A stretch of 64,000 bases of DNA, taken from Kiritimatiellia bacterium (GTDB lineage Bacteria > Verrucomicrobiota > Kiritimatiellia > RFP12 > UBA1067). Under the pieces are notes generated by a model that worked only from the letters and a program-made list of their open reading frames with translations, did no database searches and had not been told where the DNA came from. Of the stretch, positions 525 to 23,917 are shown in pieces. The first letter of the stretch is position 1. Every line of letters starts with the position of its first letter. The translations under genes were made by a program, and so were the position numbers. The DNA is taken from NCBI GenBank assembly GCA_017514235.1, contig JAFWKK010000003.1, positions 119,905-183,904 on the forward strand, read 5' to 3'.

Positions 525-3500
525 ATGGTGAACATTATGACTAAAAAGTCCGTCTTTTCGTTTGTCGCCGCGCTGACAACGGCGATTCTCACGACATCGT
601 CCGCCTTTGCGGACGATGTTTTCGCCGTCAAGAGCTTCACGAAGTACGATCGCGAAGCCTCGTCGTACACGGTTCCTGCGACGGTCAACCTAGTCATCCT
701 CAAGAAAGCATCTTCGGACATCGTTATCTGGACCCGCGACGAACTCACCGGCGCCCAGCTCACGGTTATCGAGAGCTATGCGCGTGCGCATGACCACAGC
801 CTCAAGGACCGGAACGCCATTTTCATCTCCGGCACGGGCGACCACTACATTGACAGCATGTACGGCACGGCGACCTTCGCCTACGGCGATCTGGGCCTCA
901 CCGTCACCATGCCGCGCAAGTGGTCGCACCTCGACTACGGCCACTACACGGACACGACACCCGAGCCGGATCCCGAACCTGACCCCAAACCCGGCAAGAT
1001 CACGATCACCAAGACGGTCAATGGCGGTTTGTGGCGCGTCGGCTGCGACTACATGGATGTCAACGGGCAGGGCACCTGCGACGTACTCCACATAAACAGC
1101 ACTTTGTGGAAGCGGGACTGGATCACGAACCCGAAGGGAGTCACAAGCGACGAAGGCCACCGCAAGAACAAGTGCGGCGATGACGAGCACTGGGTGATCT
1201 GGGTGGGGACCAATGGCGTGCCCTACCGCATGGACGAAATCAAGTCCGGCGCGACCGGCGGCACGCTGCCAACGGTCGTCTATCGCACGAAGGAGACCAT
1301 GACGGACGAGGAAATCGCCAACATCGGCAATCCCGACCGCCCGGAATGCCTGGCAAAGTACAAGCAGAACTTCCAGGAGCCGATGTCCTACGCGGACATC
1401 CGCGTTGGCGAGCGCATCTACTGGATCACCTTCAACAACGGGCGGATCTGGTATCATACGGGCGTCCCCTACGAGACCCAGCCGTCTTTTGTCATTTCCG
1501 TCGATGGCGTTCCCTATACCCTGACGGGCGGGCAAACCGTGGAAATCGCCGACCTTGAGCCGGGGCTTCATGAAATCACCGAATCCGAAAATCCCCTCTA
1601 TACGCTGGGACCGGTTGTGTCTTCGGAGCCCGGAAGAACGGTTCAGCGTGAGAACGGCTGGACGGTGCAGATTCTCGTCAACGCGGGCGACGACATCGTC
1701 CTGACATGGCCCAACATCCAGCCGCCGCCGACACCGCCGCCGACACCGCCGACACCGCCGGACGTTCCGCCGCCCGCCATCACCAACGTCCTCACCCTCT
1801 GCGAACTCATGGACTTCGGCAAGCGCTTCAACGCCGTTGTCTTCGGCGACCTCACCGTTTCCGGCGGCGACAGCGAAGGCGCCCTACTCGTATGGGGCAA
1901 CGCCACCCTTCCTGCCGGCTATACGGTCGGGCTCAACTCCGGCGCAGGCGAGCCGACCCCCGATGCGGGCGAACGCGACGACGGACTCATCGTCGGCGGC
2001 AACCTCGTCATCGGCCCCCAGCCCGTCAACGGCAATATCGTCTACGGCGGCACCTTCCAGGGACCGGAGCGCTGGTGGAACTATGCGTTCCGCCATGTCG
2101 CGCCCGTGACAATCGACAGCCATGGCAACGTCCCCGCCGACGGATCGGGCCGCACGGCGGCCGACCTGCTCGCGGCCGTTTGCGAACTTTCGCAGCGCGT
2201 GGCGGAGATGGAGGCCGATGGCGTCGTCACCAACACGGCGGACGGCTGTCTTGTCCTGACCGGTGCCGACACACGCCGCAACGTCTTCGAGGTCACGGCC
2301 GCTCAGTGGAGCGGTTCGCTGCGCGACTGGATCTTCGACGTCCCGTCCGGCAGCAAGATCATCGTCAATGTCGTCGGCGACTTCGTCGACATGGCCAACG
2401 GCCGCATGGTTCTCCCCGAAGGCGTTTCCAACGTGGACGTCCTCGTGAACTACGTTGACGCGACGGGCATCTCCCTTGCCTACATCGCCCACAGCGGCTC
2501 CGTTCTCGCCCCCTACGCCTCCGGCTCCTTCACCGGCGGCGCGATCGAGGGCATCGCAATTCTCGGTGGCTCGGTCGTGAGCAAAGGCGGCTTCGAGTTC
2601 CACAACTTCGGCCTCGACGTCTTCTTCTGCCCGACGGTTCCCGAAGTGGTTCTGACCACCACGGCCGGCTTTGCCCCAGACGGCGCGATTCTCGGTGCCG
2701 CGGCAGGCGCGACGGTCGTCATCACAAACTACGTCTCCAACCCCAGCGAATACTGGCTCCGCTCCGTCACCCTCGTCGGCTCGGACGGCACGACAGTTTC
2801 GCTTGGCGACCTCGCCCCCGGTGCCAGCGCCTTTGCGACGACGACCATCACGAGCGATGCCGTCGGCCGCTACACCTACTCCGCGACCGTCACGGCCGCG
2901 GCGTTCGACGCCGGCAACGTCGCCGCCATTGCGTCGCGTCCAAGCGTCACGGCATCCGACGTGGCCGTCGTCGAGTTCAGCGACGGCTCCTGTGCGGCAA
3001 CCGTCATCGACGGCGTCGTCTCGAACGAGACGGCCGCCAACTCGGCTCCGCCCGCGCCGGCGGCGAAGGCCGACTACGGCGTCACGGAAATGTGGTTCTC
3101 CTGCGTGCCGACCTTCGCCGGCGAGACCTTCACGGCCAACGTCCGTGTTGCGAACACCGGCGACGCTGACGGCGAGGGCGCCATCCTCGGCCTCTACCTC
3201 GTGAATACCAACCACGACGTCACGATTCCCGCGACCGAAAAGAACACGGCGGTGCGCACCGTCGAGCTGGGGCGGATTCCCGCCGGCCAGTCCCGCGTCT
3301 ACTCCTTCGGCGGCCTTACGGCCCCCGACGTGAGCGGCGTCTGCCGCGTGATCGCCTACGCCGACATCGAAGAGATCGAGACCGAATACAGCAAGGGCGA
3401 CAACCAGAACAACCTCACCTACGAACTCAGCCAGATCAATCTCCATATCTCCATCTCCGCCAAAGGCGTGACACTGAGATGGAGCAACGGCTGGGGGCAG

Positions 3501-4026: not shown

Positions 4027-7000
4027 ATGAAACTCCATATTACCTACGCAACCGTTGCCGCGATGATCGCCATCGCCAGCTTGACTGTTTGTCCACCCAG
4101 CTACGCCGACGACTGGGATGATCCGGGCGAAGATCCGGGCGAAGATCCAGGAGGGGGGCCGCAACCCGGCGATCCCGCGTATTGCGATACGTATGGCCAC
4201 TGGTGGGTGTTCCAGGATACGCTTGAACCGACTTGCGAGTATGAAGGCTGCGACCATTACACATGCGTAAATTGCGGTGATTGGGATGAACGAAACATCA
4301 CCCCCCCTCGGCCACAACTACGTGAACGGCGTCTGCACGCGCTGTGACGCGGGAGCGGTCACCTATACCTTCGTCCCCGCCGTCGACCCAACGTGCACGA
4401 CACCGGGGAATGTCGCCTATCTACTTGGTTCCGACAACAAGTGGTATGATCCGACAACGACGAATCAATTGTATTGGATTGCGCTCAACGCCATCGGCCA
4501 CAGCTATGGCGCATGGACCACGAACACGCCGCCCACGTGCACGACGGCGGGCGAAGAGACGCGCGCCTGCATCCGTGGCGATGTCTCGGAGACGCGCCCG
4601 CTCGCCGCCCTCGGCCACGACTGGACCGCGTGGACGGTCGTCGCGCCTGCCACCTACGCGGCGTCCGGCGAGGAGGCGCGCGACTGCACCCGTTGCGACG
4701 CCCACGAGACGCACGTGCTTCCCATGCTCCAGCGTTCTTCCACGTTCAGCATAAGCAACTCCGGGCGCACGTTCACCGTCACGCGCTCAAGCGGTACGGC
4801 CACCGAGACCGTCCACTACCGCACCGTCGGCCTCAGCGCCTACGGCGGACAACACTTCACCGGCACGAGCGGCAGTCTCACGTTCGACCCCGGCGTAACC
4901 AACCTGTCCGTAACCGTCACGGAGCAGACGCCATCCCAAGCCGCCTACAAGTTCCAGACCGGCAACTCGCGCTACTACCGCTTCGAGATCACCGACGCGG
5001 GCGGCTTCCTGGTCACCAACGCGACGCGCACCCTCACCACCGGCACGAGCGTGCCTTCGAGCGGCGCCTTCGGCGTAAAGAACCTCACGATCCAATCCGC
5101 CGAATACACAGCCGACGACAGAGGCTACGACAACAACGGCTACAAGTCCGTCTCCAGCAACGGCTACTTCGCCGCCGCCGCGCCGCGACCGTATTTCCAG
5201 CTTGTCGACGCCCAGCTGCACATGACGCTCAGCATGAGCGCCAAGGAGAACGACGACGCCTACGAGTACCTCCAGCTCCTCTTCAACAACACATCCGCCT
5301 GCGACAACCGCTCCGGCTGCAACAACGGCAACCCCGGCAACATCAGCCTCTCTGCCTACATGGCGGGCTTCGAGATGGATACCGGCAGCAAGGACAGCAC
5401 GTACAGGAACTATACCTTCCCCGTAACGAACGTCGGCAACAACGCAGGCGCCGCCAATCCCTGGGGACATGGCACCAAATACCCCCTCTCGATGCAGAAG
5501 TTCAACACCGCCACCGGCAGCCGCGCCTCCGACGGCCGCATCGTCGTGCCTCTGGACTTCAGCTCCATCGTCCTCCGCCTCAACGCCTCCGGCAGCAGCG
5601 GCAGCGACGAGTGGGCCGCCAAGAGCGTCGTCGCCCACGTCCAGGCCGTCGATACCGCCGCGCCCGCCAGGCTCGCCACCGCCGTCGCCCCGGGCATCCG
5701 CGCAAGGGGCAACGAATTCTACGTCTCCGTGGCGTTCAGCGAGCCCGTCACCTGCTCCTCCGCGACGCTCACCAACTCCTGGGGCTCGCTCACCTACAAC
5801 TCCGGCAGCGGCTCGAACGTCCTCACCTTCAAGGGCACGATCCCCGCCGACGCCACCGGCGCCCTCAACATCACCGGCTGGAGCGGCAACATCAAGGACC
5901 TCGCCGGCAACCCGCTTGGCGCCACCGCCCTCACCCAGAAGAACCTCGCCACCATAGACGCCTCCCACGCCTACGCCATCGCCTACGACCTCGCGGGCGG
6001 CGCGCTCCCCGAAGGCGCGTCCAACCACGACACCTACACCTACGAAACGCCGTCCTTCACCCTCGCGAACCCCCTCCGCCCCGGCTACGCCTTCGCGGGC
6101 TGGACGGAAGGCAACGGCTCGACGCCCAATCCTTCCGTCGCCATCTACCGTTCCCACGGCGACCGCGCCTACACCGCCAACTGGACGCCCGTCACGTACT
6201 TTGTCCACTTCGACCCCGGCACCGCGGACGCCACCGGCTCGATGCCCGACCAGTCCTTCACCTACGACACGCCGCAGGCGATAGCGTCCAACGCCTTCAC
6301 GCGCGCGGGCTACACCTTCACCGGCTGGCGCGGCGCGGACGGCGCCATCTACCCAGACCGCGCGACCGTCCTGAACCTCACCAACGCCCAGGACGCCGTC
6401 GTGTCGCTCACCGCCACTTGGCGGCCCAACATCCCGTACATCGACGAAGACGGCACCGAGCGGCTCTGCACCAACTACACCGTCCTCACGGACGCCACGA
6501 GCGGTGTCACATACGGCGAATTTGGTGCGACGGCCTGGTACGTCGTCACCAACGCCGTCACCATCAGCGGACAGCTCGGCTTCCGCGGAACCTCCCACCT
6601 GATCCTCTGCGGCGGCGCATCCCTCGCCGTCACGAACGAGGACGACATCGCCATCGACGCCAACGACCTCACCATCTACGGCCAGACGAACGGCTCGGGC
6701 GCCGTCACCGCCACAGGCACAAACGGCGGCGGCATCTACGCAGGCTCCGTCACGATCAACGGCGGCAATGTCACCGCCGAGGGCGGCAACGGCATCTGCG
6801 CCGTCTACGGCTCCGTCACGATCAACGGCGGCACCGTCACCGCCGAGAGCGGCCCTGGCGGGGGCGGCTGGGGCATCTACGCCAACAACGGCTCCATCAT
6901 CCTCGGCTGGACGAACCCCACCGACAGCATCACCGCCAGCAGCTACTATACCGGCGGCTCCGTCGTCCGCGTCAAGGACGGCCAGGTGCTCACCGACGGC

Positions 7001-7699
7001 AGCGCCATCTACATGGACGACCTCACCCACTCCGCCATCGCGGGCGTGACGCTGCGGCCATACATCGACACGCCGACGTATCCGGCGTATCTGGGCCTGC
7101 CTGCAGACTCGGATGACGACACGGATGAAGACTTCGATATCCGGGCGAACTACGACGCCTGGGCGCAACGGTACGGCTACGACGCGCTTGGCGCGAACGA
7201 GACGGCCTACCTCCTCGACGTCGCGCCGTGGGCGGTCACGAACGGCGTGACGCCGCTGAAGGTCGCCGAGATGGGCGTCACGAACATCCTCGTCAGAGAA
7301 GCCGGCGACTTCGGGTGGGTCGCCCAGAGGATGGGCTACACCGGCGACACGCTGCCGATCTGGCGTCTCGTGCTGGCGAGCGACGTGGCGCCGCTCAAGG
7401 ACGGCTTCTACGACAGCCTTATGGTCTGCAACGGCTATCTCGTGCTGCGAATCGGCACGGATCTCTCCGTGCCGAAGAGCGAATGGCTGGAGACGGGCTG
7501 GTTCGCCAGGGTCGAGGACGGCCGTGCGGAGCTCTTGTGCCCGGAGTTCATACTTGAGAAGTACCGCGAGCGCGTCGCGAGGGAGACCGGCAAGCCCTGC
7601 CCCGGGCTTTTCCTCTCGGTGACCCTCTCGCCCCGTCAGTCGAGCTCGACCGCGTTCGCCGAAATCCTGGAAGAAGAGCTCGGGGACAAGCTGCAGTGA
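4027..7699 (+). pseudogene. Giant secreted Listeria-Bacteroides-repeat (InlB B-repeat / Flg_new) surface protein, split by a frameshift at a C7 tract
   Basis: The signal peptide MKLHITYATVAAMIAIASLTVCPPSYA starts at 4027 in frame 1, and this frame stops at 4347. Frame 2 (ORF 4277-7699) continues the same Cys motif. Across the C7 run (4301-4307) the text reads TCVNCGDWDERNITP/PLGHNYVNGVCTRC, a single CxxCG...LGHxY repeat unit. Downstream are Flg_new-like repeats (YAIAYDLAGG...GYAFAGW; YFVHFDPG...GYTFTGW). Confidence 0.75.
4301..4307 (+). repeat. Homopolymeric C7 tract at the frameshift site
   Basis: The sequence reads atca-ccccccc-tcg. Losing one C (or gaining two) fuses frame 1 to frame 2. 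Confidence 0.9.
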
Positions 7700-7781
7700 G
7701 GGGGACTATGGGGACGATGGGGACAATGGGGACTGTGGGGACGGCGGGTCGCCACAGTCGCCAATGTCCCCATAGTCCCCC
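7700..7781 (+). repeat. 82-nt palindromic array of nine 9-nt units (GGGGACNNT switching to GTC[C/G]CCNNN), copy L
   Basis: It starts directly after the TGA at 7697-7699 and ends 4 nt before the AAGGAGG Shine-Dalgarno of the next gene. It has perfect 16-nt terminal inverted repeats at 7700-7715 and 7766-7781. Confidence 0.9.
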
Positions 7782-7799
7782 AAAAGGAGGCACCAGCCA

Positions 7800-8477
7800 A
7801 TGGCCACGAAGATCATTTTGCCGCATGGCGGTTACCGAAATCTGCTCACCTACAAGAAGAGCGACGTCATCTACCAGGGCACGGCAGTCTTCGTGAAGCG
7901 TTTTCTTCAGCGCGGCGACCGCACCATCGACCAGATGGTGCAGGCCGCGCGCAGCGGCAAGCAGAACATCGTCGAAGGCAGCGAGGCGTCTGCGACGAGC
8001 AAGGAGACCGAGCTCAAGCTCACCAACGTCGCCAAGGCGAGCCTTGAGGAGCTTCTCGAAGACTACCTCGACTATCTCAAGGTCCACGGCCTGCCCGAAT
8101 GGCCGAAAGATTCCGAAAAGGGTCTCGCGGCGCGCCGGCTCGGGCGCGAGGGCGGCTGGGAGGCCTTCGCGCCGCACATCGAGAAGAAGAGCGACGAGGT
8201 GGCGGCGAACCTGATGGTCTCGCTCATCCGGCAATGCACGTATCTGCTGGCGAAGCAGATCGCGCAGCTCGAAGAAGACTTCAAGAAGCATGGCGGCATC
8301 AAGGAGCGCATGTACGCCGCCCGCAGCGAGGCGCGCGCCGAAGACTGGGGCAAGGCCGCCTACTCGCGCCTCGCCGCCGCGCAGTCGCTCGACGAACTGA
8401 CCGCGCGCTGCCGCGAGATGTCGGCCGAGCTCCGCCGGATGGCCGACGGCATCAAACAGAGAAAGGGCTGGTCATGA
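7800..8477 (+). CDS. Four-helix-bundle protein with suffix domain (23S rRNA intervening-sequence protein / Avd-like family)
   Basis: The 225-aa ORF has an AAGGAGG Shine-Dalgarno 9 nt upstream. The motifs GGYRNLLTYKKSDVIY, DRTIDQMVQAARSGKQNIVEGSEASATSKETELKLTNVAKASLEELLEDY match my recollection of the four-helix-bundle suffix-domain family. Confidence 0.8.
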   Translation: MATKIILPHGGYRNLLTYKKSDVIYQGTAVFVKRFLQRGDRTIDQMVQAARSGKQNIVEGSEASATSKETELKLTNVAKASLEELLEDYLDYLKVHGLPEWPKDSEKGLAARRLGREGGWEAFAPHIEKKSDEVAANLMVSLIRQCTYLLAKQIAQLEEDFKKHGGIKERMYAARSEARAEDWGKAAYSRLAAAQSLDELTARCREMSAELRRMADGIKQRKGWS

Positions 8478-8559
8478 GGGGGAGAATGGGGACTGTGGGG
8501 ACAATGGGGACGGCTGGTCGCCAAAGTCGCCACCGTCCCCATTGTCCCCACCGTCCCCC
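8478..8559 (+). repeat. 82-nt palindromic array of nine 9-nt units, copy R (direct repeat of 7700-7781)
   Basis: It starts directly after the TGA at 8475-8477. It has a perfect 17-bp stem at 8497-8513 and 8533-8549. It has the same length and the same unit vocabulary as copy L. Confidence 0.9.
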
Positions 8560-8575
8560 AGAAAGGCTCAATTCT

Positions 8576-10786
8576 ATGAAGACACTCGTAATATTCGCGG
8601 CTGCGGCCGTTCTCGCGGCATGCGCCAGGGGCGAAACCGCAAACGCTTCGCCCACTCTCATCACCACCCGCGAAGGTCTTGCCGCCATTGCGGACAACCT
8701 CGCTGGCTCATACGCGCTCGGAGCGAACATCGACCTCGACGGAGCGGACTGGACGCCCATCGGCAACAACTCCGCGCCGTTCACCGGCACGCTCCACGGC
8801 AACGGCTACGCCATCCGCAACCTCTTCTGCACGAACAGCCTGTCGGGCAGCGACTATCGCGGACTCTTCGGCTGTGCGAGCAACGCGACGATCGAGTGCG
8901 TCTCCGTCTCGGGAACGGTCGCGGGCAAGCAGTACGTCGGCGGTCTCGTTGGATGCATCACGGGCGGAACTCTCATCAGCAACTGCATCGCGACGGTCGA
9001 AATCGCGGCGACCAACTCATACGCCGGAGGCCTGATCGGGGCGTGTGCCGGCGGCAGCGCGACCAATCGAATCGTCAACTGCCGCGCGGACGGCTTCGTG
9101 AGCGGTTCCGGCATGACGGGCGGCTTCATCGGCTACGTCTATGCGCCGGCCGTGATCTCCAACTGCGTGGCGCGCGGCGACGTGCGCTCCGCCGCCAGCT
9201 ACTACGGCGGCTTCGTCGGGCGGCTCGCCCACGATGACGCGACTATCAGCGGCTGCTGGTGCTCCGGCGCCGTGTGGGGCACGGGCGGCGACATTGGCTC
9301 GTTCATCGGCCACCACGTGAGGGGAACGAATGTCAACTGCGCGGTTTCGGCCTACGCCAACGGTCCGCGTCCGTTCTGCGGGAGCAACCCGGCCATCACG
9401 GGCGGCAGTCTCACGCAGGCGGAAATCAAGGCGCTCTCCGATGGCTGGCCTGAAGCGCCGAAGCGCGCCAAGTCCAGCGCGATGATTCCGATTTCGACAC
9501 CCGAGGAACTGTTTGCCGTCACGAACAACCCCTCGGGCAGCTATGTGCTGACGGCGGACATCGACTTCGTCGGCGAGACCATCGAGCCCATCGGCAACTA
9601 CAGGACCCCATTCAAAGGCGAGTTCTACGGACAGAACCACAAGATCAGCAACTTCTACATCGACACCTCTGAAAGGTATGCGGGTCTCTTCGGCAAGATC
9701 AACGGCGGCCGCGTGAGCGGCGTGCAAGTGGAGGAGGGTCATGTCACCGGCGGTCCGGCCGACTCCGGATTGGAGGACGTCGGCGTTGGCGGTCTCGCGG
9801 GCAAGATCGACTCCAAGACGCTGGTGGACGGCTGCTGGTTCGTCGGAGAAGTCGTGAACACGAGCAGCGCCAACGCCGGCGGCTTCGTCGGCTACACCGC
9901 AGATTCGCCCGTCATTCTCCGCTGCTGCGTGGAAAGTTATGTGGCGAACGAGTCCGGCAAGTCGTACACGGGCGGCTTCGTCGGCAACCACGGCGGCGGC
10001 TTCATCGCGGACTCGAGCGCCCAATCGTCAGTGGATAGCAGCGACGGCTACGGCGGCAATGGCGGCGACAATGTCGGCGGCTTCGCGGGCGGCGTGTCGA
10101 AGGCGGCCCGTATCGCCACCTCCTGGTGCTACAGCTACGTCTCGAGCGATGGTGGGCACTATCGCGGCGCGTTCGTCGGCCAGGCCAGTTCCGGTCTCGT
10201 CACTGGTTCCTACTATGAAGACACCGAGAACAGCCTGAAGGCCGCCGGCACGAGTAGCGGCTCCGACGACTACGCCGGCATCACGCCGCTCGGCGACGAG
10301 GAGATGCAGCGGAAAGAGTCCTTCACAGCCCTCGACTTCGACGACGTCTGGATGATCGACGAAGGGGAGACGATGCCGTATCTGCGGTGCTTCGGCGAAA
10401 TCGTGATCAGCTCGTTTTCCGACTGGCTGTCCTACTGCGAACTGCCTGCGGACTCGCGGCCGGATTACGTCACGAACGGCATACCGCTCATCGCGCGGTA
10501 CGTGTTCGGCATCAACTCCATGGATTCCGTCCTGAACGAGAACAATGAACCCGTCTTCCGCGTCGAGTTCACCGACGATGGCGAACCATACGTCCAGTTC
10601 GCGAAGCACGTCTACGGTACCGCCAGGGAAGTGACGCTCGAAGTCCTGGCCACACAAGACGCAACGGACTGGAAAGACCCCGAGATCATTCCTGTGGACC
10701 TTGACGAAGGTCGCGCCAAGCCAGCCTGCCCGGACGGCGTACCCTCTTCCATGTTCTTCCGCTGGCGGATGCACCTGGCGGAATAG
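8576..10786 (+). CDS. Secreted GLUG-motif repeat protein (adhesin or IgA-protease-like passenger type)
   Basis: The signal peptide MKTLVIFAAAAVLAACARG begins at ATG 8576; the ORF portion upstream of it reads through repeat R and is unlikely to be real. Repeated GGLVG, GGLIG, GGFIG, GGFVG and GGLAG motifs with surrounding periodicity are typical of GLUG domains. Confidence 0.75.
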   Translation: MKTLVIFAAAAVLAACARGETANASPTLITTREGLAAIADNLAGSYALGANIDLDGADWTPIGNNSAPFTGTLHGNGYAIRNLFCTNSLSGSDYRGLFGCASNATIECVSVSGTVAGKQYVGGLVGCITGGTLISNCIATVEIAATNSYAGGLIGACAGGSATNRIVNCRADGFVSGSGMTGGFIGYVYAPAVISNCVARGDVRSAASYYGGFVGRLAHDDATISGCWCSGAVWGTGGDIGSFIGHHVRGTNVNCAVSAYANGPRPFCGSNPAITGGSLTQAEIKALSDGWPEAPKRAKSSAMIPISTPEELFAVTNNPSGSYVLTADIDFVGETIEPIGNYRTPFKGEFYGQNHKISNFYIDTSERYAGLFGKINGGRVSGVQVEEGHVTGGPADSGLEDVGVGGLAGKIDSKTLVDGCWFVGEVVNTSSANAGGFVGYTADSPVILRCCVESYVANESGKSYTGGFVGNHGGGFIADSSAQSSVDSSDGYGGNGGDNVGGFAGGVSKAARIATSWCYSYVSSDGGHYRGAFVGQASSGLVTGSYYEDTENSLKAAGTSSGSDDYAGITPLGDEEMQRKESFTALDFDDVWMIDEGETMPYLRCFGEIVISSFSDWLSYCELPADSRPDYVTNGIPLIARYVFGINSMDSVLNENNEPVFRVEFTDDGEPYVQFAKHVYGTAREVTLEVLATQDATDWKDPEIIPVDLDEGRAKPACPDGVPSSMFFRWRMHLAE

Positions 10787-10942: not shown

Positions 10943-13042
10943 ATGGCAAAGCGTGACATACCGCTCGAAAGAGTACGCAACTTCGGCATCATGGCTCACA
11001 TTGATGGCGGCAAGACGACTACATCGGAGCGAATCCTTTACTATTCCGGCAAGAACTACAAGATCGGCGAGGTGCACGACGGCGCTGCGACGATGGACTT
11101 CATGGTCCAGGAGCAGGAACGCGGCATCACGATCCAGTCGGCGGCCACGACCGTCATGTGGGGCGACTACCGCCTCGCGCTCATCGACACTCCCGGACAC
11201 GTCGACTTCACGGCCGAGGTGGAGCGCTCCCTGCGCGTCCTCGACGGCGCGGTCGCGCTCTACTGCGCGGTCGGCGGGGTGCAGCCGCAGTCCGAGCAGG
11301 TGTGGCGACAGAGCGAGAAGTACAAGGTGCCTAAGATTGCGTTCGTAAACAAGATGGACCGCGTTGGCGCGAACTTCTACAGCGTGATGGACCAGATGAA
11401 GAACCAGCTCGGCGCGAACCCGGTTCCGATGGTCATCCCGATCGGCGCGGCGGAGACGTTCGAGGGCGTCATCGACCTGGTGCGCATGAAGGCGCTGTAC
11501 TTCGACATGAAGTCGCTCGGCAAGACGGTCATAGAGAAGGATATCCCCGAGGAGTACCTGGAGAAGGCGAAGGAGTACCGCGAGAAGATGGTCGACGCGG
11601 CCGCCGCGCAGGATGACGAGCTGGCGGAGAAGTTCCTTGGCGGCGAGGATCTTACCATTGACGAGATCAAGCGCGCGATACGCAAGGGGTGCCTCTCTCG
11701 CGACATCACGCCCGCGTTCTGCGGCAGCGCGTTCAAGGACAAGGGCGTGCAGCCCCTTCTCGACGCGATCTGCGACTACCTGCCGTCGCCTCTCGACACT
11801 GGCGCGGCGGTCTCGGCGGACGATCCGAGCCAGAAGCGCGAGGTCAGCGACGACGAGCCGTTCTGCGGCCTGGCGTTCAAGATCATGTCCGACAAGAACA
11901 TGGGCAAGATCACCTTCGTGCGCGTCTATTCCGGCACGATGAAGCTCGGCGCCGAGCTTCTCGACTCTACGATCAACCAGGAGCAGCGCATCTCGCGCCT
12001 GTTCCGCATGCACGCGAACAAGCAGGAGCCGCTGGAGGAGGCGCGCGCCGGCGACATCGTCGCGTGCGTCGGCCTAACCCAGACGCGCACGGGCGACACG
12101 TTGTGCGACCCGGAGCATCCGATAACGCTTGAGTCCATCGACTTCCCGGCGCCGGTCATCTCTGTCGCCGTCAAGCCGAAGAGCCGCGGCGACAACGAGA
12201 AGCTCGGAGTCGCGCTGCACGCGCTCGCCATGGAGGACCCGACGTTCGTCGTGAGCTTCGACCAGGAGACGAGCGAGACGATCATCGCCGGCATGGGCGA
12301 GCTCTACCTCGAAGTCATCGTCGACCGCCTGAAGCGCGAGTTCAACGTCGACTGCGACGTGGGCGCCCCGCAGGTCGCCTACCGCGAGACCATACAGACG
12401 AAAGTCGAGAACGAGTACAAGCACGTCAAGCAGTCCGGCGGCCGCGGCCAGTACGCGCACGTCTGCCTCAGGCTCGAGCCGCAGGAGCCCGGCAAGGGCT
12501 TCGAGTTCGTCAACGAGATCAAGGGCGGCGTCATCCCCACGGAATACATACCGGCGGTCGAAAAAGGCGTCAAGAAGGCGCTCGAGTCCGGTCCGCTCGC
12601 GGGCTTCCCGGTGGTGGACGTCAAGGCTACGGTCTACTTCGGCAGCTACCACGAGGTCGACTCGAACGAGTTCGCGTTCATCACCTGCGCGATGCAGTGC
12701 TTCAAGCAGGCGTTCATGAAGGCGAAGCCCCAGCTGCTGGAGCCGATGATGGACGTCGAAGTCGCCGTGCCCGAGCAGTACATGGGCGCGGCGAACGGCT
12801 CCATCAACCAGAGGCGCGGCCGCGTCGAGGGCATGGAGGACCGCGCGGGCGTCAAGCTCATCAAGGCGACCGTCCCGCTCGGCGAGATGTTCGGTTACTC
12901 GAACGCGATCCGCACGGTTACGCAGGGCCGCGGCACCTTCACGATGATCTTCAAGCAGTACGAGGCCGTTCCGAAGGCAATCGCCGAGGAAGTCGTGCAG
13001 AAGCGCATCAAGGAAGGCAAGGTCCGCCCGTCGGCGGAATGA
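10943..13042 (+). CDS. fusA: Translation elongation factor G
   Basis: The 699-aa protein has the G1 motif [18 protein letters not shown] and NKMD, and the full-length EF-G architecture. Confidence 0.95.
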
Positions 13043-20513: not shown

Positions 20514-20670
20514 ATGACATGAGAGGCATGGGGGGCATGAGAGGCGCGAGACGGAGATGGCGTGAGGGACGTGGGGGGCGAGAGAGACGCGAGGGCTCTC
20601 GCCTCTCATGTCTCTCACGTCCCTCATGTCATTGACCCTCTCGCCTCTCATGTCTCTCGCGCCCCTCCCG
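20514..20670 (-). repeat. Palindromic array of about seventeen 9-nt units (CATGAGAGG / CATGGGGGG and complements) between the secretin stop and the next Shine-Dalgarno
   Basis: Read directly. There is 9-nt periodicity, with inverted repeats at 20563-20573/20616-20626, 20582-20588/20610-20616, 20589-20593/20598-20602 and 20514-20523/20624-20633. Confidence 0.85.
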
Positions 20671-23600
20671 TCATTCTTCAAACTTCGTCGCAGCCGCAGG
20701 CTTCTCCTCGGCCTCAGGCTCGGGCTTTACTTCTGCAACAGGCTCTTGCTTTACCTCGGCAACGGGTTCAGGCTTTACTTCTGCAACAGGCTCGGGCTTT
20801 ACCTCAGCAACTGGCTCAGGCTTCACCTCGGCAACTGGCTCGGGCTTTACCTCAGCCACTGGCTCCGGCTTTGCCTCGGCCTCCGGCTTCTCGTCATCGG
20901 CCTTAGCCTTTTCAGCTTTCTCGGCATCGAGCTTTGCGCGCTCGTTGTCGCTGTGCGTAAGCTCCTCGTTAGCCTTGATCTCCTTCTCGGCCTCAGCAAG
21001 CTTCTTAGCCCTAATATCTTCGGCGAGCTTCTTGAGCTCCTCCTGACTTTCCTTGTCGAGCATCTTCTCCTCAAGTTCCTTCTGCTTCTCCTCCTCCAGC
21101 TCTTCCTTGTGCATCTTGAGCCAGAGATCACGCTCTTCCTTCGAGAGAGTCTGTAGCTTCTTGGCGCGCTCCACCTTCTCCTTCTCGATGGCAATCTTGG
21201 TCTTGCGCTCCTCATCCTGCTTCTTCCACTCGTCCTTCAAGCGCCTGAGCTGCTCGCGCTTGCTGACGGGATCGGCCAACTTCGACGCGGACCACCCGTG
21301 GTCATCCCACGGTCTCGGGTCGGACAGCGTCTTCTTGCGGCGAATCGCCTCCGCCTGCGCCACTTGCGCGTCATCAAGCACATAAGGCGTGAGGAAGATC
21401 ATCAGTTCCTTGCGGCTCTCATTGTTCTTCACCGTCCCGAAAAGCCATTTGCCGATGAAGGGTATGTCCTTTAAGAAAGGAATGCCCTTCTCGTACTCCG
21501 ACTTGACCGTCTCGACAAGACCGGCAAAGACCACGGTCTGACCGTCCTCAAGCAGCACGTCGGCAGTCATCTTGCGCTCGACGGCGATATCAACGTCCTG
21601 CGGAATGTACTGTCCGTTCTGCGGAACAAGCATCGACTGGCCGCCATAGTTCACCTGCGAATACTCCTCTTCCACCGTCAGCATGACCGTGCCGTTGGGG
21701 TTGATCTTCGGGGTGATCTTGAGCTTAATGCCGATGTCCTTGGCAGTGTAGTTCGGCGTCGGCTGGCCACTGTTGCCGTAGCTGCCCGACTGAGCCGACC
21801 AGCCAGTAATGAACTGCCTGTTCTCGGTGGCGTCGATCGTAGCCTCCTTGTTATCCACCGTCATGACAACTGGCGACGCTACGTACTTGGTGCGGTTGTC
21901 AGTCTTCGCTGCCTGGAGAATCGTAGAAAGCCCCAGCCTATCGGAGTCGAAGACGAACGAAAACGCCTGTCCGAATACGTTCGATACGACACCAGCGGCG
22001 ATGTCATGCGCCTGCGAACCGCCGTAACTGCCGCCGCCGAGCGCAGCTGCCGCACCGCCGCCGTAATACGCCATTGCGCCGTCACGGGCCACAGCAGCCA
22101 TCGTAGCAGCAACACTGCTGGCTTTCTCGCTTACGGTCTTTGTCCAGGTGTCATTCCCGGTGCCGGTCGTAGTCGTGTTTTCGTAGGAGAAGGTTGACGG
22201 CACAAGCTCGCCGATAAGTGAAGTGGAAGTCTGCGATTTGCCTTGGTTGTCTCCTGTGCCGGTCCATGTGGTCGTGCGCTCTTTGAAAAACATGTTCTGC
22301 GGAACAAGATTTCCGTTCTCGTCAATGGTATGACCGTTCGTCACTGGCTTGGTAATCTTCTGGCGGCCCTTCTGCACCCAGTCCATGCCGGTCTCGATGC
22401 CGTCGCCAAGGCCCACCACGATGATGACCGTCTCGATAAGCACCTGCGAGAGCTTGATGTCCATCGACTCGATGATCTGCTCCAGCGTCGGCACAAGCTC
22501 CTTCTGCGTCATGACGACGAGACCGTTGATGCGCTTGTCATGGAGGACGGTGGTGTTCTCCTTCGAAAGCTCGCCGGCCTTGACGTCTCCGGTGCGCTGG
22601 TTGGCCGACTTCTTCGCGGCGGACGTGCCGCCTGTAGGCGTGTTGCGCGTAAGGTTGCCGCCCGACCCCTGCTTGGCGTTCTGGTTCTGGTTCGCCTTGC
22701 TGGACCCCTTTGACGACGGCGCGTTGCCGATGAGGTCGTTGATCATGTCGGAGACATCCTCCGCAAGGGCGTACTTGAGGCGGTACACCTTTACGACTGT
22801 GTCGGGAGTGGTCTCCACGTCGAGCTGCTCGATGACCTTGTCGAAGAAGTCCATGTTCGACTTCATCGTGACGATGATAAGCTTGTTCGACCGCTCGTCG
22901 GCGAGAATCAGCACCTTGCCGCGTATCATGCCGCGGTCCGCGTCGGAGACGTTCATCACGAGCGACTGGTTGCTCGCCGACGCGGCGGCGGGCTGGTTGC
23001 CGTTCTGGCCCGGGCGGCGCAGCATGCTGCCCAGGAGCGGCGGACGCGGAGCGTTGTTCTGCTGCTGCGCCTGGTTCTGGTTCACGGCCTTGCCGTTCTT
23101 CTCCTGCTCTTTCTGCGACTCCTGCACGATCGCCTCGAGCGCCATCTTGATGTCCTGGGCCGAGGCGTTCTTCACCTGGCGCACGAACACGTTCTCGAGG
23201 ACCGGCGTCGCCACGTCGACCGCTCTCGCGATCTCGAGCATGCGGTTGATGTTCTGCTCCGTATCGGTGACGAGAATCGAGTTGGTGCGCTCGAACACGA
23301 GCAGCACGCCGTCGTTGGACTTAAGCCCCTCCAGCACCTTCTGCGCCTCGTCGGTGGCGATGTTCTTGAACGGAATCATCATCGACACGGTGCGGCTCGT
23401 CTCGCCGACCTTCGTCTCCGAGTCCATGATGAGCGGAATGCCGCCCTTGCGCACGTCCTTGCGGGGCAGCGCGCGCACGAAGCTCTCGCCGTATGGCTCG
23501 AGATGAACGCCGTTCATCTCAAGGATCGTCTCTATGGCCTGGATGTATTCCTCGTCGGTGAGCTTCTGCCCGGCACGCGTCTTCAGCGTGATTGTCGCGC

Positions 23601-23901
23601 TCGGGCAGGCAGGGTCCTTGAGAACGGTCTTGCCGACGCGCTCGCCATACGCCTGCAGCACGATGTCAACGGGCGCGGCGTCCCAGTTCAGCGCCGACGG
23701 GTCGGCGTTCTCGTCCGCAGCCTCGGAGGAATCGGAAGAGTCCGAAGCGGCGGAACGAGACGAACGAGACGAGCGCGACTCGGACGACCTGTTGCGGTCG
23801 CGGCTTCGGCGCAGAAGCGACTGCGCCGAAGCCGATTCGGCCATGACGGCGGCAAGCGCAAGCACCGCGACTATGACATATAAGCCTCTCATGTCTCTCA
23901 T
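20671..23901 (-). CDS. Secretin (GspD/PilQ family) with a long charged C-terminal extension
   Basis: The 1076-aa protein has a signal peptide, secretin-N-type repeats and a secretin core ending in ELMIFLTPYVLDD. This is followed by a ~232-aa E/K-rich helical tail ending in (KPEPVAEV)x6. Confidence 0.85.
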   Translation of the reverse strand: MRDMRGLYVIVAVLALAAVMAESASAQSLLRRSRDRNRSSESRSSRSSRSAASDSSDSSEAADENADPSALNWDAAPVDIVLQAYGERVGKTVLKDPACPSATITLKTRAGQKLTDEEYIQAIETILEMNGVHLEPYGESFVRALPRKDVRKGGIPLIMDSETKVGETSRTVSMMIPFKNIATDEAQKVLEGLKSNDGVLLVFERTNSILVTDTEQNINRMLEIARAVDVATPVLENVFVRQVKNASAQDIKMALEAIVQESQKEQEKNGKAVNQNQAQQQNNAPRPPLLGSMLRRPGQNGNQPAAASASNQSLVMNVSDADRGMIRGKVLILADERSNKLIIVTMKSNMDFFDKVIEQLDVETTPDTVVKVYRLKYALAEDVSDMINDLIGNAPSSKGSSKANQNQNAKQGSGGNLTRNTPTGGTSAAKKSANQRTGDVKAGELSKENTTVLHDKRINGLVVMTQKELVPTLEQIIESMDIKLSQVLIETVIIVVGLGDGIETGMDWVQKGRQKITKPVTNGHTIDENGNLVPQNMFFKERTTTWTGTGDNQGKSQTSTSLIGELVPSTFSYENTTTTGTGNDTWTKTVSEKASSVAATMAAVARDGAMAYYGGGAAAALGGGSYGGSQAHDIAAGVVSNVFGQAFSFVFDSDRLGLSTILQAAKTDNRTKYVASPVVMTVDNKEATIDATENRQFITGWSAQSGSYGNSGQPTPNYTAKDIGIKLKITPKINPNGTVMLTVEEEYSQVNYGGQSMLVPQNGQYIPQDVDIAVERKMTADVLLEDGQTVVFAGLVETVKSEYEKGIPFLKDIPFIGKWLFGTVKNNESRKELMIFLTPYVLDDAQVAQAEAIRRKKTLSDPRPWDDHGWSASKLADPVSKREQLRRLKDEWKKQDEERKTKIAIEKEKVERAKKLQTLSKEERDLWLKMHKEELEEEKQKELEEKMLDKESQEELKKLAEDIRAKKLAEAEKEIKANEELTHSDNERAKLDAEKAEKAKADDEKPEAEAKPEPVAEVKPEPVAEVKPEPVAEVKPEPVAEVKPEPVAEVKQEPVAEVKPEPEAEEKPAAATKFEE
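20724..20891 (-). repeat. In-frame 24-bp tandem repeat (about 7 units) encoding KPEPVAEV repeats at the secretin C-terminus
   Basis: The units begin at 20724, 20748, 20772, 20796, 20820, 20844 and 20868. They differ mainly at wobble positions. Confidence 0.9.
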
Positions 23902-23917
23902 GTCCTCTCTCCCTTCA

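Follow-up and report, generated by a model that had tools for sequence, protein, structure and literature searches.

Among bacterial proteins without a known function, those of the S23p or 'four helix bundle' kind rank with the most common and, to our knowledge, Avd of the diversity-generating retroelements (DGRs) is the only relative that has been characterised. What is to be made, then, of a gene of this kind that lies exactly between two palindromic arrays of 9-nt units in a Kiritimatiellia bacterium? Do the arrays belong to the gene or to its surroundings, and do they act in DNA or in RNA? The gene, here termed the 4HB-suffix (four-helix-bundle-suffix) gene (7800-8477, + strand), and its arrays L (7700-7781) and R (8478-8559) were analysed within a stretch of 64,000 nt from contig JAFWKK010000003.1 (assembly GCA_017514235.1), hereafter the window, whose numbering is used throughout, positions at other loci being given with the name of the locus. 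Window positions 7700-8559 are one discrete module made of an array, a promoterless gene and a second array, and this combination of gene and arrays is the normal layout of the 4HB-suffix family in several phyla. As to function, we favour, with about an even chance of being right, the reading that the arrays are DNA-level cis elements between which recombination deletes, captures or exchanges the gene, and that they are multi-site platforms, most likely for the cassette's own oligomer.

Both arrays are palindromic, 82 nt long and built of nine 9-nt units, which have the general form GG[G/C/A]GACNNT and then switch to the complement. Array L comprises five GGGGACNNN (GGGGAC) units, a 5-nt centre, two GTCGCC and two GTCCCC units; array R comprises one GGGGAG and three GGGGAC units, the centre, two GTCGCC and three GTCCCC units. 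Array L starts right after the TGA (7697-7699) of the upstream open reading frame (ORF) 4277-7699, and array R right after the TGA (8475-8477) of the 4HB-suffix gene. Downstream of L follow AAAAGGAGG, which is the Shine-Dalgarno sequence of the gene within a spacer (7782-7799, + strand) conserved with locus L044, and then ATG 7800; downstream of R follow GAAAGG and ATG 8576. The lengths, the TGA starts and the placement before the next ribosome-binding sites hold as given in the original prediction, an annotation made from the letters of the window, and its count of five G-type plus four C-type units in L against four plus five in R is reproduced by the unit count. The perfect inverted repeats that it described (7700-7715/7766-7781 in L and 8497-8513/8533-8549 in R) are exact, as is a 15-nt complement between L and R (7719-7733 with 8535-8549). 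The two arrays are 85% identical across 71 nt, with the register offset by one unit, and 74% complementary across 82 nt. All 12 sites of the pattern GGGGACN3GGGGAC (at most one mismatch) in the window lie within them, against 0.48 expected from shuffles, and their predicted folds are stable on either strand (-66.5 kcal/mol, z = -8.0, for L; -66.0 kcal/mol, z = -6.6, for R). Being the same, bar 2 single-nucleotide polymorphisms, in six independent assemblies of the window's population (rumen-metagenome scaffold), and identical across ten assemblies in the case of the homologous arrays of a relative, they are not assembly artefacts. The number of units is invariant inside these two populations and differs between species-level relatives, and a hypervariable unit number of the phase-variation kind was rejected within populations on the strength of the same six and ten assemblies. 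The idea that assemblies break at the arrays was dropped too, metagenome contigs being generally short and several short ones running past arrays. The units are 9 nt long and contiguous, unlike the repeats of at least 24 nt with unique spacers that define clustered regularly interspaced short palindromic repeats. As a side observation, the last codons of the adhesin-like gene upstream, (CTC) GGG GAC AAG CTG CAG TGA (7682-7699), already hold GGGGAC and look like degenerate units (73% to 7719-7740), and both the stop codon and the C-terminal end of the encoded protein may come from the array.

Where does the module begin and end? Window positions 6500-10000 were aligned by blastn to the loci of relatives that encode a protein 86-89% identical to that of the window. 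The matches span 7697-8558 in L064, 7701-8558 in L157 and 7747-8558 in L158, and nothing outside these limits matches, so the block shared with L064 and L157 is array L, gene and array R. The module alone, and nothing outside it, is common to different chromosomal contexts: on its left, the window has an adhesin gene, L064 and L158 have a gene for an FGE-sulfatase variable protein, and L157 and L160 have the reverse transcriptase (RT) and template repeat (TR) of a DGR. Array R, the right boundary of the cassette, is also the left boundary of a block common with L034, a Verrucomicrobia metagenome-assembled genome (MAG) that has no 4HB gene at this place: there, a homologue of the Glug gene found downstream in the window stands behind a single array of 10 G-type and 4 C-type units, with 81% nucleotide identity over array and gene start. 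The first unit of this array, GGGGAGAAT, and its 3' flank are as in array R, and homology to the window begins at R's first unit. In L074 (~4880-4925), an FGE-sulfatase gene is followed by no more than the first 11 codons of an HRDC gene (MAQFNTFYIPM, as in L160), which pass without a gap into array L; L074 is therefore a DGR that has lost HRDC-RT-TR through a deletion ending at the array's outer edge. It is thus at the arrays that blocks of homology between window and relatives start and stop. In L030 (3630-3788, minus strand), the array has a complete gene on one side and, on the other, the 3' part of another 4HB-suffix gene, confined to the suffix domain, which points to tandem cassettes or to recombination at the array. 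The proposal of a cassette made in the original prediction is borne out by the shared block of array, gene and array and by its recurrence across phyla, and the comparison that it suggested with a relative lacking the gene found its case in the solo array of L034.

In a pattern scan across 185,579 species genomes, GGGGAC hairpin arrays lay directly beside a 4HB-suffix gene in Ignavibacteria, Chitinophagales, Verrucomicrobiaceae, Bacteroidetes MAGs and a rumen MAG, so that the co-occurrence of arrays and four-helix-bundle genes in other genomes, which the original prediction had proposed to look for, extends across phyla. In a census of 80 metagenomic loci of the family with Tandem Repeats Finder, 80 period-9 arrays lay within 300 nt of the gene (43.6 kb) and 25 in the other 241 kb, a density about 18-fold higher near the gene, and period 9 accounted for 80 of the 92 near-gene arrays. 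At least one array was present at 47 of the 71 loci for which both flanks were available, and 17 had arrays on both sides. The units of the two flanks of one gene differ on average by 1.1 nt and those of different loci by 3.3 nt; on the tree of the proteins, loci of one unit type group together whatever their GC content, and the type varies by lineage (GGGGACNNN, AAGGGACNN, CTGGGACAA, ATAGGACGT, TAAAGACCT, AAGCGATNN) with an (R)GAC-type core kept. The period departs from 9 in L094 (8 nt) and L096 (10 nt), and arrays have from 3 to 17 units. Within them, the purine-rich arm comes before the pyrimidine-rich arm in ~20 flanks against 1, so that the units point to the array centre. A finished genome is among the carriers: in Prevotella nigrescens FDAARGOS_1486, the gene K8O81_RS09930 is followed by a 9-nt hairpin array of TAGGAAy/TTCCTA type, and no further array of that type was found in 200 kb of the replicon. 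The same Prevotella gene was the only match in a tblastn search with the N-terminal domain that was aimed at classical, non-suffix PF05635 genes. The repeats are not unique to the window's locus, nor do relatives carry the gene here without arrays, either of which the original prediction had named as fatal to a cassette. The neighbours of the gene are unrelated across loci (MmeI, Fic, GroEL, SelB, secretin, HsdM, sigma-70, TonB receptor), and L079 and L131 are among further family loci that adjoin restriction-modification genes.

The window protein (225 aa; TIGR04258 and TIGR02436, Avd/S23p superfamily) scores 75.5 bits with TIGR04258 (cut-off 40) and 28.3 bits with TIGR02436 (cut-off 24), and with PF05635 it stays under the cut-off (24.5 against 33.8 bits). 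In a single-chain AlphaFold2 model (pLDDT 91) it is all helical, and the best Foldseek matches of this model, 2gsc (Xcc0516), 2rld (BT_0352) and 8ub7_B (Avd in the DGR ribonucleoprotein), have target-normalised TM scores of 0.66-0.77 and probabilities of 0.9-1.0 with weak E-values, so that the predicted fold is the four-helix bundle of S23p/Avd type. The protein is basic (pI 9.2), and Avd is likewise basic (average pI 9.5) and a pentamer binding RNA and DNA (PMC5758913). The window protein is plausibly an Avd-type factor. Its central segment, DRTxDQMxQAARSGKQNIxEGS...SKETELKLTNVA..LEELLxDY, is near-invariant in the family down to 51% overall identity, and the suffix family comprises 3,275 clusters at 50% identity. 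A PDB sequence search gave nothing significant, and profile and library searches recognised no catalytic domain in the protein. A defence, phage or plasmid origin was rejected, as the protein has no match in the PADLOC and PHROGs libraries and the family no relative among 2.9 million viral contigs; the one match in the plasmid collection is in fact a 568-kb secondary replicon of Prevotella.

Arrays also occur on their own. At least seven GGGGAC arrays stand alone between genes in a Kiritimatiellaeota MAG, and the 'far' arrays of the metagenomic loci are mostly of the same unit type as the gene's own. An intact MmeI-type gene of 1000 aa in L079 contains a hairpin array of AAGGGAC/GTCGCTT units (2864-2939) without loss of frame, placed in the linker that joins the methyltransferase domain (aa 365-621) to the target-recognition domain (aa 676-880). 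The window itself holds a second array type at 20535-20655, made of GAGAGACAT/GAGGGACGT and their complements (-89.5 kcal/mol, z = -7.6), with no 4HB gene adjoining; it lies just beyond the stop of a minus-strand secretin-like gene (20671-23901), and a half array (23885-23915) overlaps the annotated start of that gene, whose MRDMRG is translated array. Inside the same gene, a 24/48-nt tandem repeat (20699-20880) encodes the PEPVAEVK repeats of the C-terminus of the protein. Intergenic 7-nt tandem repeats of related Kiritimatiellae contigs (TAGTGGC, TGAATGT, AGTGTAA; L161 1928-1996 and 3405-3440) are a different class of short repeat, reminiscent of the short tandemly repeated repetitive sequences of cyanobacteria. 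As the G-type units are free of stop codons in every frame, gene callers read through arrays: in L034 (778-1563, minus strand) a TetR-like ORF is extended by MGTVGTMETIGT..., ORFs run through arrays also in P0036 and P0041, 4HB proteins bear N-terminal extensions, and the Pfam matches of the database 'protein' P0144 combine TetR_N and Glug. Many family members in the 50% library align only from residue 40-90 on.

How could such an arrangement work? According to the reading that we favour, because the arrays are dispersed and partly identical, the segment between two of them could be deleted, leaving a solo array, and by the same route a gene could be captured or exchanged. The fixed 9-nt register, conserved core and free spacer would make each array a multi-site binding platform, whose ligand would most likely be the oligomeric, nucleic-acid-binding protein of the cassette itself. 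At the transcript level, the arrays, having neither U-tract nor promoter, would be part of a polycistronic RNA and would fold, and such very stable hairpins between a stop codon and the next ribosome-binding site would act as structural punctuation. In the unit logo of the window's clade, the core G-G-[G/C/A]-G-A-C stands out, with 1.7-2.0 bits at G1, G2, G4, A5 and C6, although positions 1-6 are inflated by the choice of units for their similarity to GGGGAC; positions 7 and 8 are almost random (0.07 and 0.19 bits), and T prevails at position 9. Such a profile suggests repeated recognition sites in fixed register rather than a slippage microsatellite. Several observations weigh against this reading. 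No recombinase, transposase, target-site duplication or excision product comes with the cassette, whose movement we infer. About one third of the family loci have no detectable array, and the architecture of the arrays is mixed, with hairpin, single-arm and direct forms. The search for a clean empty site gave none: homologues of the Glug gene that are 77-81% identical lie in unrelated contexts without arrays and are therefore uninformative on this point. The same arrays stand at the same place in all six and all ten assemblies of the two populations, and P0116, an exact 185-aa member found at L164-L173, always belongs to an operon for type I restriction-modification (hsdM, hsdS, 4HB-suffix, DUF6088/AbiEii and hsdR in this order, with a short 9-nt TATrGAC x4 array upstream); given such stability, much of the pattern could be vertical inheritance with local deletions. 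Finally, the binding of units by the protein is purely conjectural, and the best-conserved segment of the protein hardly varies while the units differ.

Are the arrays, then, rather those of a DGR, and is the gene an avd whose RT and TR were lost or lie elsewhere? The arrays would in that case be DGR cis elements, such as the target cruciform or the 3' end of the template RNA. The original prediction was right to point to a kinship with intervening sequences (IVSs) and Avd, and two homologues of 86-89% identity lie physically within DGRs. L160 (1830-5678; protein 86% identical) is a complete DGR with FGE-sulfatase target, variable repeat (VR), TR, HRDC gene and RT, in which the 4HB-suffix gene comes directly after the TR, with an array downstream; its VR (2916-3054) and TR (4681-4819) are 87% identical, with Asn runs in the TR where the VR has Tyr. 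L157 (318-2359; 89% identical and from the same study as the window) has the order RT, TR, array, gene, array. The RTs of the two loci are just 39% identical to each other, and both loci have a common 36-nt element, GGCTGGTAGGCGArAyGCCGAACGCCACGCGGGGCT, between TR and array. Furthermore, a VR-like FGE-sulfatase gene directly precedes array L in L064, L158 and L074, and a GC-rich inverted repeat 3' of the VR is a known DGR element. However, tblastn with two DGR RTs found no RT in the 64 kb of the window, where there is also no FGE-sulfatase match, no 36-nt post-TR element, no TR and no VR, and a DGR-type RT is likewise absent from the flanks of all 80 family loci that are more distant, where the neighbours are unrelated housekeeping or restriction-modification genes. 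The arrays follow the gene, not a DGR; at nearly all loci they flank the gene and not a VR, and a DGR relic is quite improbable. The only integrase seen is a Xer-like gene in L160, outside the cassette. Nor does an RNA unit in the manner of an IVS, in which the array stems of a read-through transcript would be cut by RNase III or block exonucleases and so free or insulate a guest ORF, seem likely to us. The hairpins, stable on either strand and placed between stop codon and ribosome-binding site with no U-tract and no promoter, would suit it, and the protein family is that encoded in RNase III-excised IVSs; in L087, L117, L122 and L154, moreover, the arms flank the gene as a complementary pair, with the purine-rich arm upstream and never the reverse order (L134, tried as another such enclosing pair, was rejected when its repeats proved direct). 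Yet in 34 gene-oriented hairpin arrays, mismatches that give G.U on the sense strand and those that give G.U on the antisense strand only (A.C-type) number 86 and 83 (p = 0.88), so that nothing points to a selected RNA structure on the coding strand and the reading of sense-strand selection was set aside, and ~27% of the aligned stem positions are not Watson-Crick. Single-arm or direct arrays, as in L077 and L134, can form no stem at all, and the minimum-free-energy fold of the whole cassette prefers two local hairpins to the long-range L:R helix around the ORF. Both that helix and the RNA-processing unit, which the original prediction had considered, lose ground by these tests, and an RNA unit would in addition leave the 9-nt register and the conserved core unexplained.

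Could gene and arrays be neighbours by mere coincidence, the arrays being generic repeats like repetitive extragenic palindromes (REPs), G-quadruplexes or terminators that happen to lie beside a small gene? The second array type next to the secretin gene and the many solo arrays of a related MAG would fit such a view, and the G-arms of the window arrays match G4N5G4N5G4N5G4. It is effectively refuted by the 18-fold enrichment near the gene over 80 independent loci, by the likeness of the units on the two flanks of one gene and by the homology that covers array, gene and array alone; the restriction of GGGGAC arrays to the gene in the 64-kb window, and of the Prevotella gene's own type to that gene in 200 kb, also speaks against it. 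A G-quadruplex was rejected in spite of the motif, since AT-rich units of the family such as TAAAGACCT and ATAGGACGT are unable to form one, and a terminator for want of a U-tract. A further explanation, which overlaps in part with the reading that we favour and is possible although rather doubtful, is formally akin to REPIN-RAYT or TRAP: the 4HB-suffix protein and its repeats would be a cognate pair, in which the protein reads the 9-nt units, one per ring subunit, in RNA or single-stranded DNA and either autoregulates its gene along with those next to it or causes the arrays to be copied and spread, perhaps with an RT. The gene would then be a resident 'master' between its own repeats and not mobile cargo. 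Arrays on both flanks, a unit type that follows the protein lineage and solo arrays elsewhere, formally as for RAYT and REP, would agree with such a pair, as would the fixed register with conserved core and free spacer, the stable position within populations, the basic protein with the homologues 2gsc and Avd as pentameric nucleic-acid-binding rings, and the coupling of close homologues to DGR RT-TR. On the other side, unit numbers from 3 to 17 do not match a ring size, the protein motif stays invariant whatever the unit sequence, an RT within 4 kb is missing at most loci and the protein has no recognisable catalytic domain. In its boldest form, which we hold to be unlikely, the pair would be self-copying, an Avd-like ring reading (R)GAC units in single-stranded nucleic acid and copying or inserting the arrays and itself into transcribed DNA, alone or with a recruited RT.

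Does any described system have this architecture? Full-text literature searches with the family names and repeat-related terms returned no description of it, in agreement with the original prediction, which knew of no such element; heptamer repeats in Coxiella, described below, are a partial precedent. REPs and REPINs are short extragenic palindromes of 20-40 nt with a GTAG or CGTC tag, and the RAYT gene is flanked by its own type of repeat. The cassette resembles them in that the gene lies between its own repeats, the repeat type changes along with the protein lineage and solo copies occur elsewhere. It differs in that the gene encodes a four-helix bundle and not a HUH/Y1 transposase, and in that the repeats are modular arrays of 9-nt units seen in low copy number (the only two GGGGAC arrays of the 64 kb adjoin the gene; none more in the 200 kb of P. 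nigrescens; at least seven solo arrays in the Kiritimatiellaeota MAG). Integron cassettes combine a promoterless ORF with an imperfect palindromic attC hairpin and are exchanged as 'gene plus one repeat', and conserved unpaired positions in the arrays, the G.G mismatches at GTCGCC, recall the extrahelical bases of attC. However, the window cassette has no IntI, attI, Pc promoter, cassette array or R/L core sites, and recombination at the 9-nt arrays is something that we infer only from homology breakpoints. Rickettsia palindromic elements are single palindromes of 100-150 bp that lie in frame in genes, with no unit structure and no linked protein gene; the likeness is that palindromic arrays are tolerated in coding sequence (L079) and that ORFs run through them (L034, P0036, P0041). 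TRAP is a ring-shaped homo-oligomer that reads (G/U)AG repeats with free spacers in the trp leader RNA, and the unit logo, with short cores, free spacers and fixed register, is alike in a purely formal way. With Avd, the cassette shares the homologous fold (8ub7_B; cd16375 link), the basic pI and the homologues of 86-89% identity directly after RT-TR in two DGRs; the differences are that the window and most family loci are without RT, TR and VR, that the linked DGRs are ordered RT-TR-gene and not avd-TR-RT, and that classical Avd has ~128 aa and no unit arrays reported at its flanks. The nearest precedent is the S23p-carrying IVS of 23S rRNA, known from Coxiella and Leptospira. The protein superfamily is the same (PF05635/TIGR02436), the cassette too carries an S23p-family ORF, a small guest in a host transcript that is bounded by complementary sequences, and repeats with a GAC core precede the ORF in Coxiella, where tandem GACAGAT heptamers (x2-3, of variable copy number) lie just upstream of it (PMC4990558). 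IVSs are excised by RNase III and regarded as selfish elements spread by horizontal transfer (PMC4990558). Nonetheless, the cassette lacks the rRNA location that defines an IVS, lying between protein-coding genes; it has a full palindromic array of 9-nt units on each side where the IVS has one terminal stem; its protein has an extra 'suffix' domain and ~100 more residues, and RNase III excision finds no support in the wobble test.

The genes around the cassette are all on the + strand as far as the Glug gene. Upstream, ORF 4277-7699 encodes a surface or adhesin-like protein of 1140 aa (Pfam Flg_new/List_Bact_rpt, Calx-beta), and downstream, region 8560-10786 comprises a spacer with the weak Shine-Dalgarno sequence GAAAGG and the gene of a 736-aa Glug/M26_N-like surface protein (ATG 8576); of the 'two giant adhesin genes' of the original prediction, the adhesin-like nature of the upstream one stands, and the downstream one is hardly giant. 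The exact upstream adhesin, sought for a population-level empty allele, is not on record. After the Glug gene comes the gene of EF-G (10943-13042). The promoter and terminator search gave no match at the 4HB gene and no terminator-like site in 7000-9000, and neither array resembles an intrinsic terminator, being followed by AAAAGG and AGAAAG and not by a U-tract. An extended -10 promoter motif, TGGTATAAT, has 15 sites in the window at up to one mismatch, against 1.6 expected, mostly just 5' of genes (e.g., 13209, 25758, 28735, 33412, 60801), and it also precedes genes in the related contigs L044 and L161-L163. With no such site on the + strand between 4450 and 13209, transcription may run as one unit through the adhesin, 4HB, Glug and EF-G genes. 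Rfam models found one tRNA in the window and no rRNA or other RNA family, and no integrase is among the genes called within ~10 kb on each side of the cassette.

What does this layout mean for the family? A conserved and recognisable cis architecture gives rise to the hypothesis that the units are the binding sites of the protein and the recombination sites of the cassette, and in at least one relative (L074) the array breakpoints coincide with partial loss of a DGR. Stop-free arrays entail systematic mis-annotation, in the form of N-terminal extensions, fused ORFs and in-frame inserts. Prevotella nigrescens is a cultured carrier of the gene and its array. The origin and movement of the elements that carry S23p, such as the rRNA IVSs, have been in question since the 1990s. 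If the unlikely proposal of a self-copying cognate pair were true, gene and arrays would be a new class of mobile element without a transposase, and this would explain how S23p-encoding intervening sequences entered rRNA genes.

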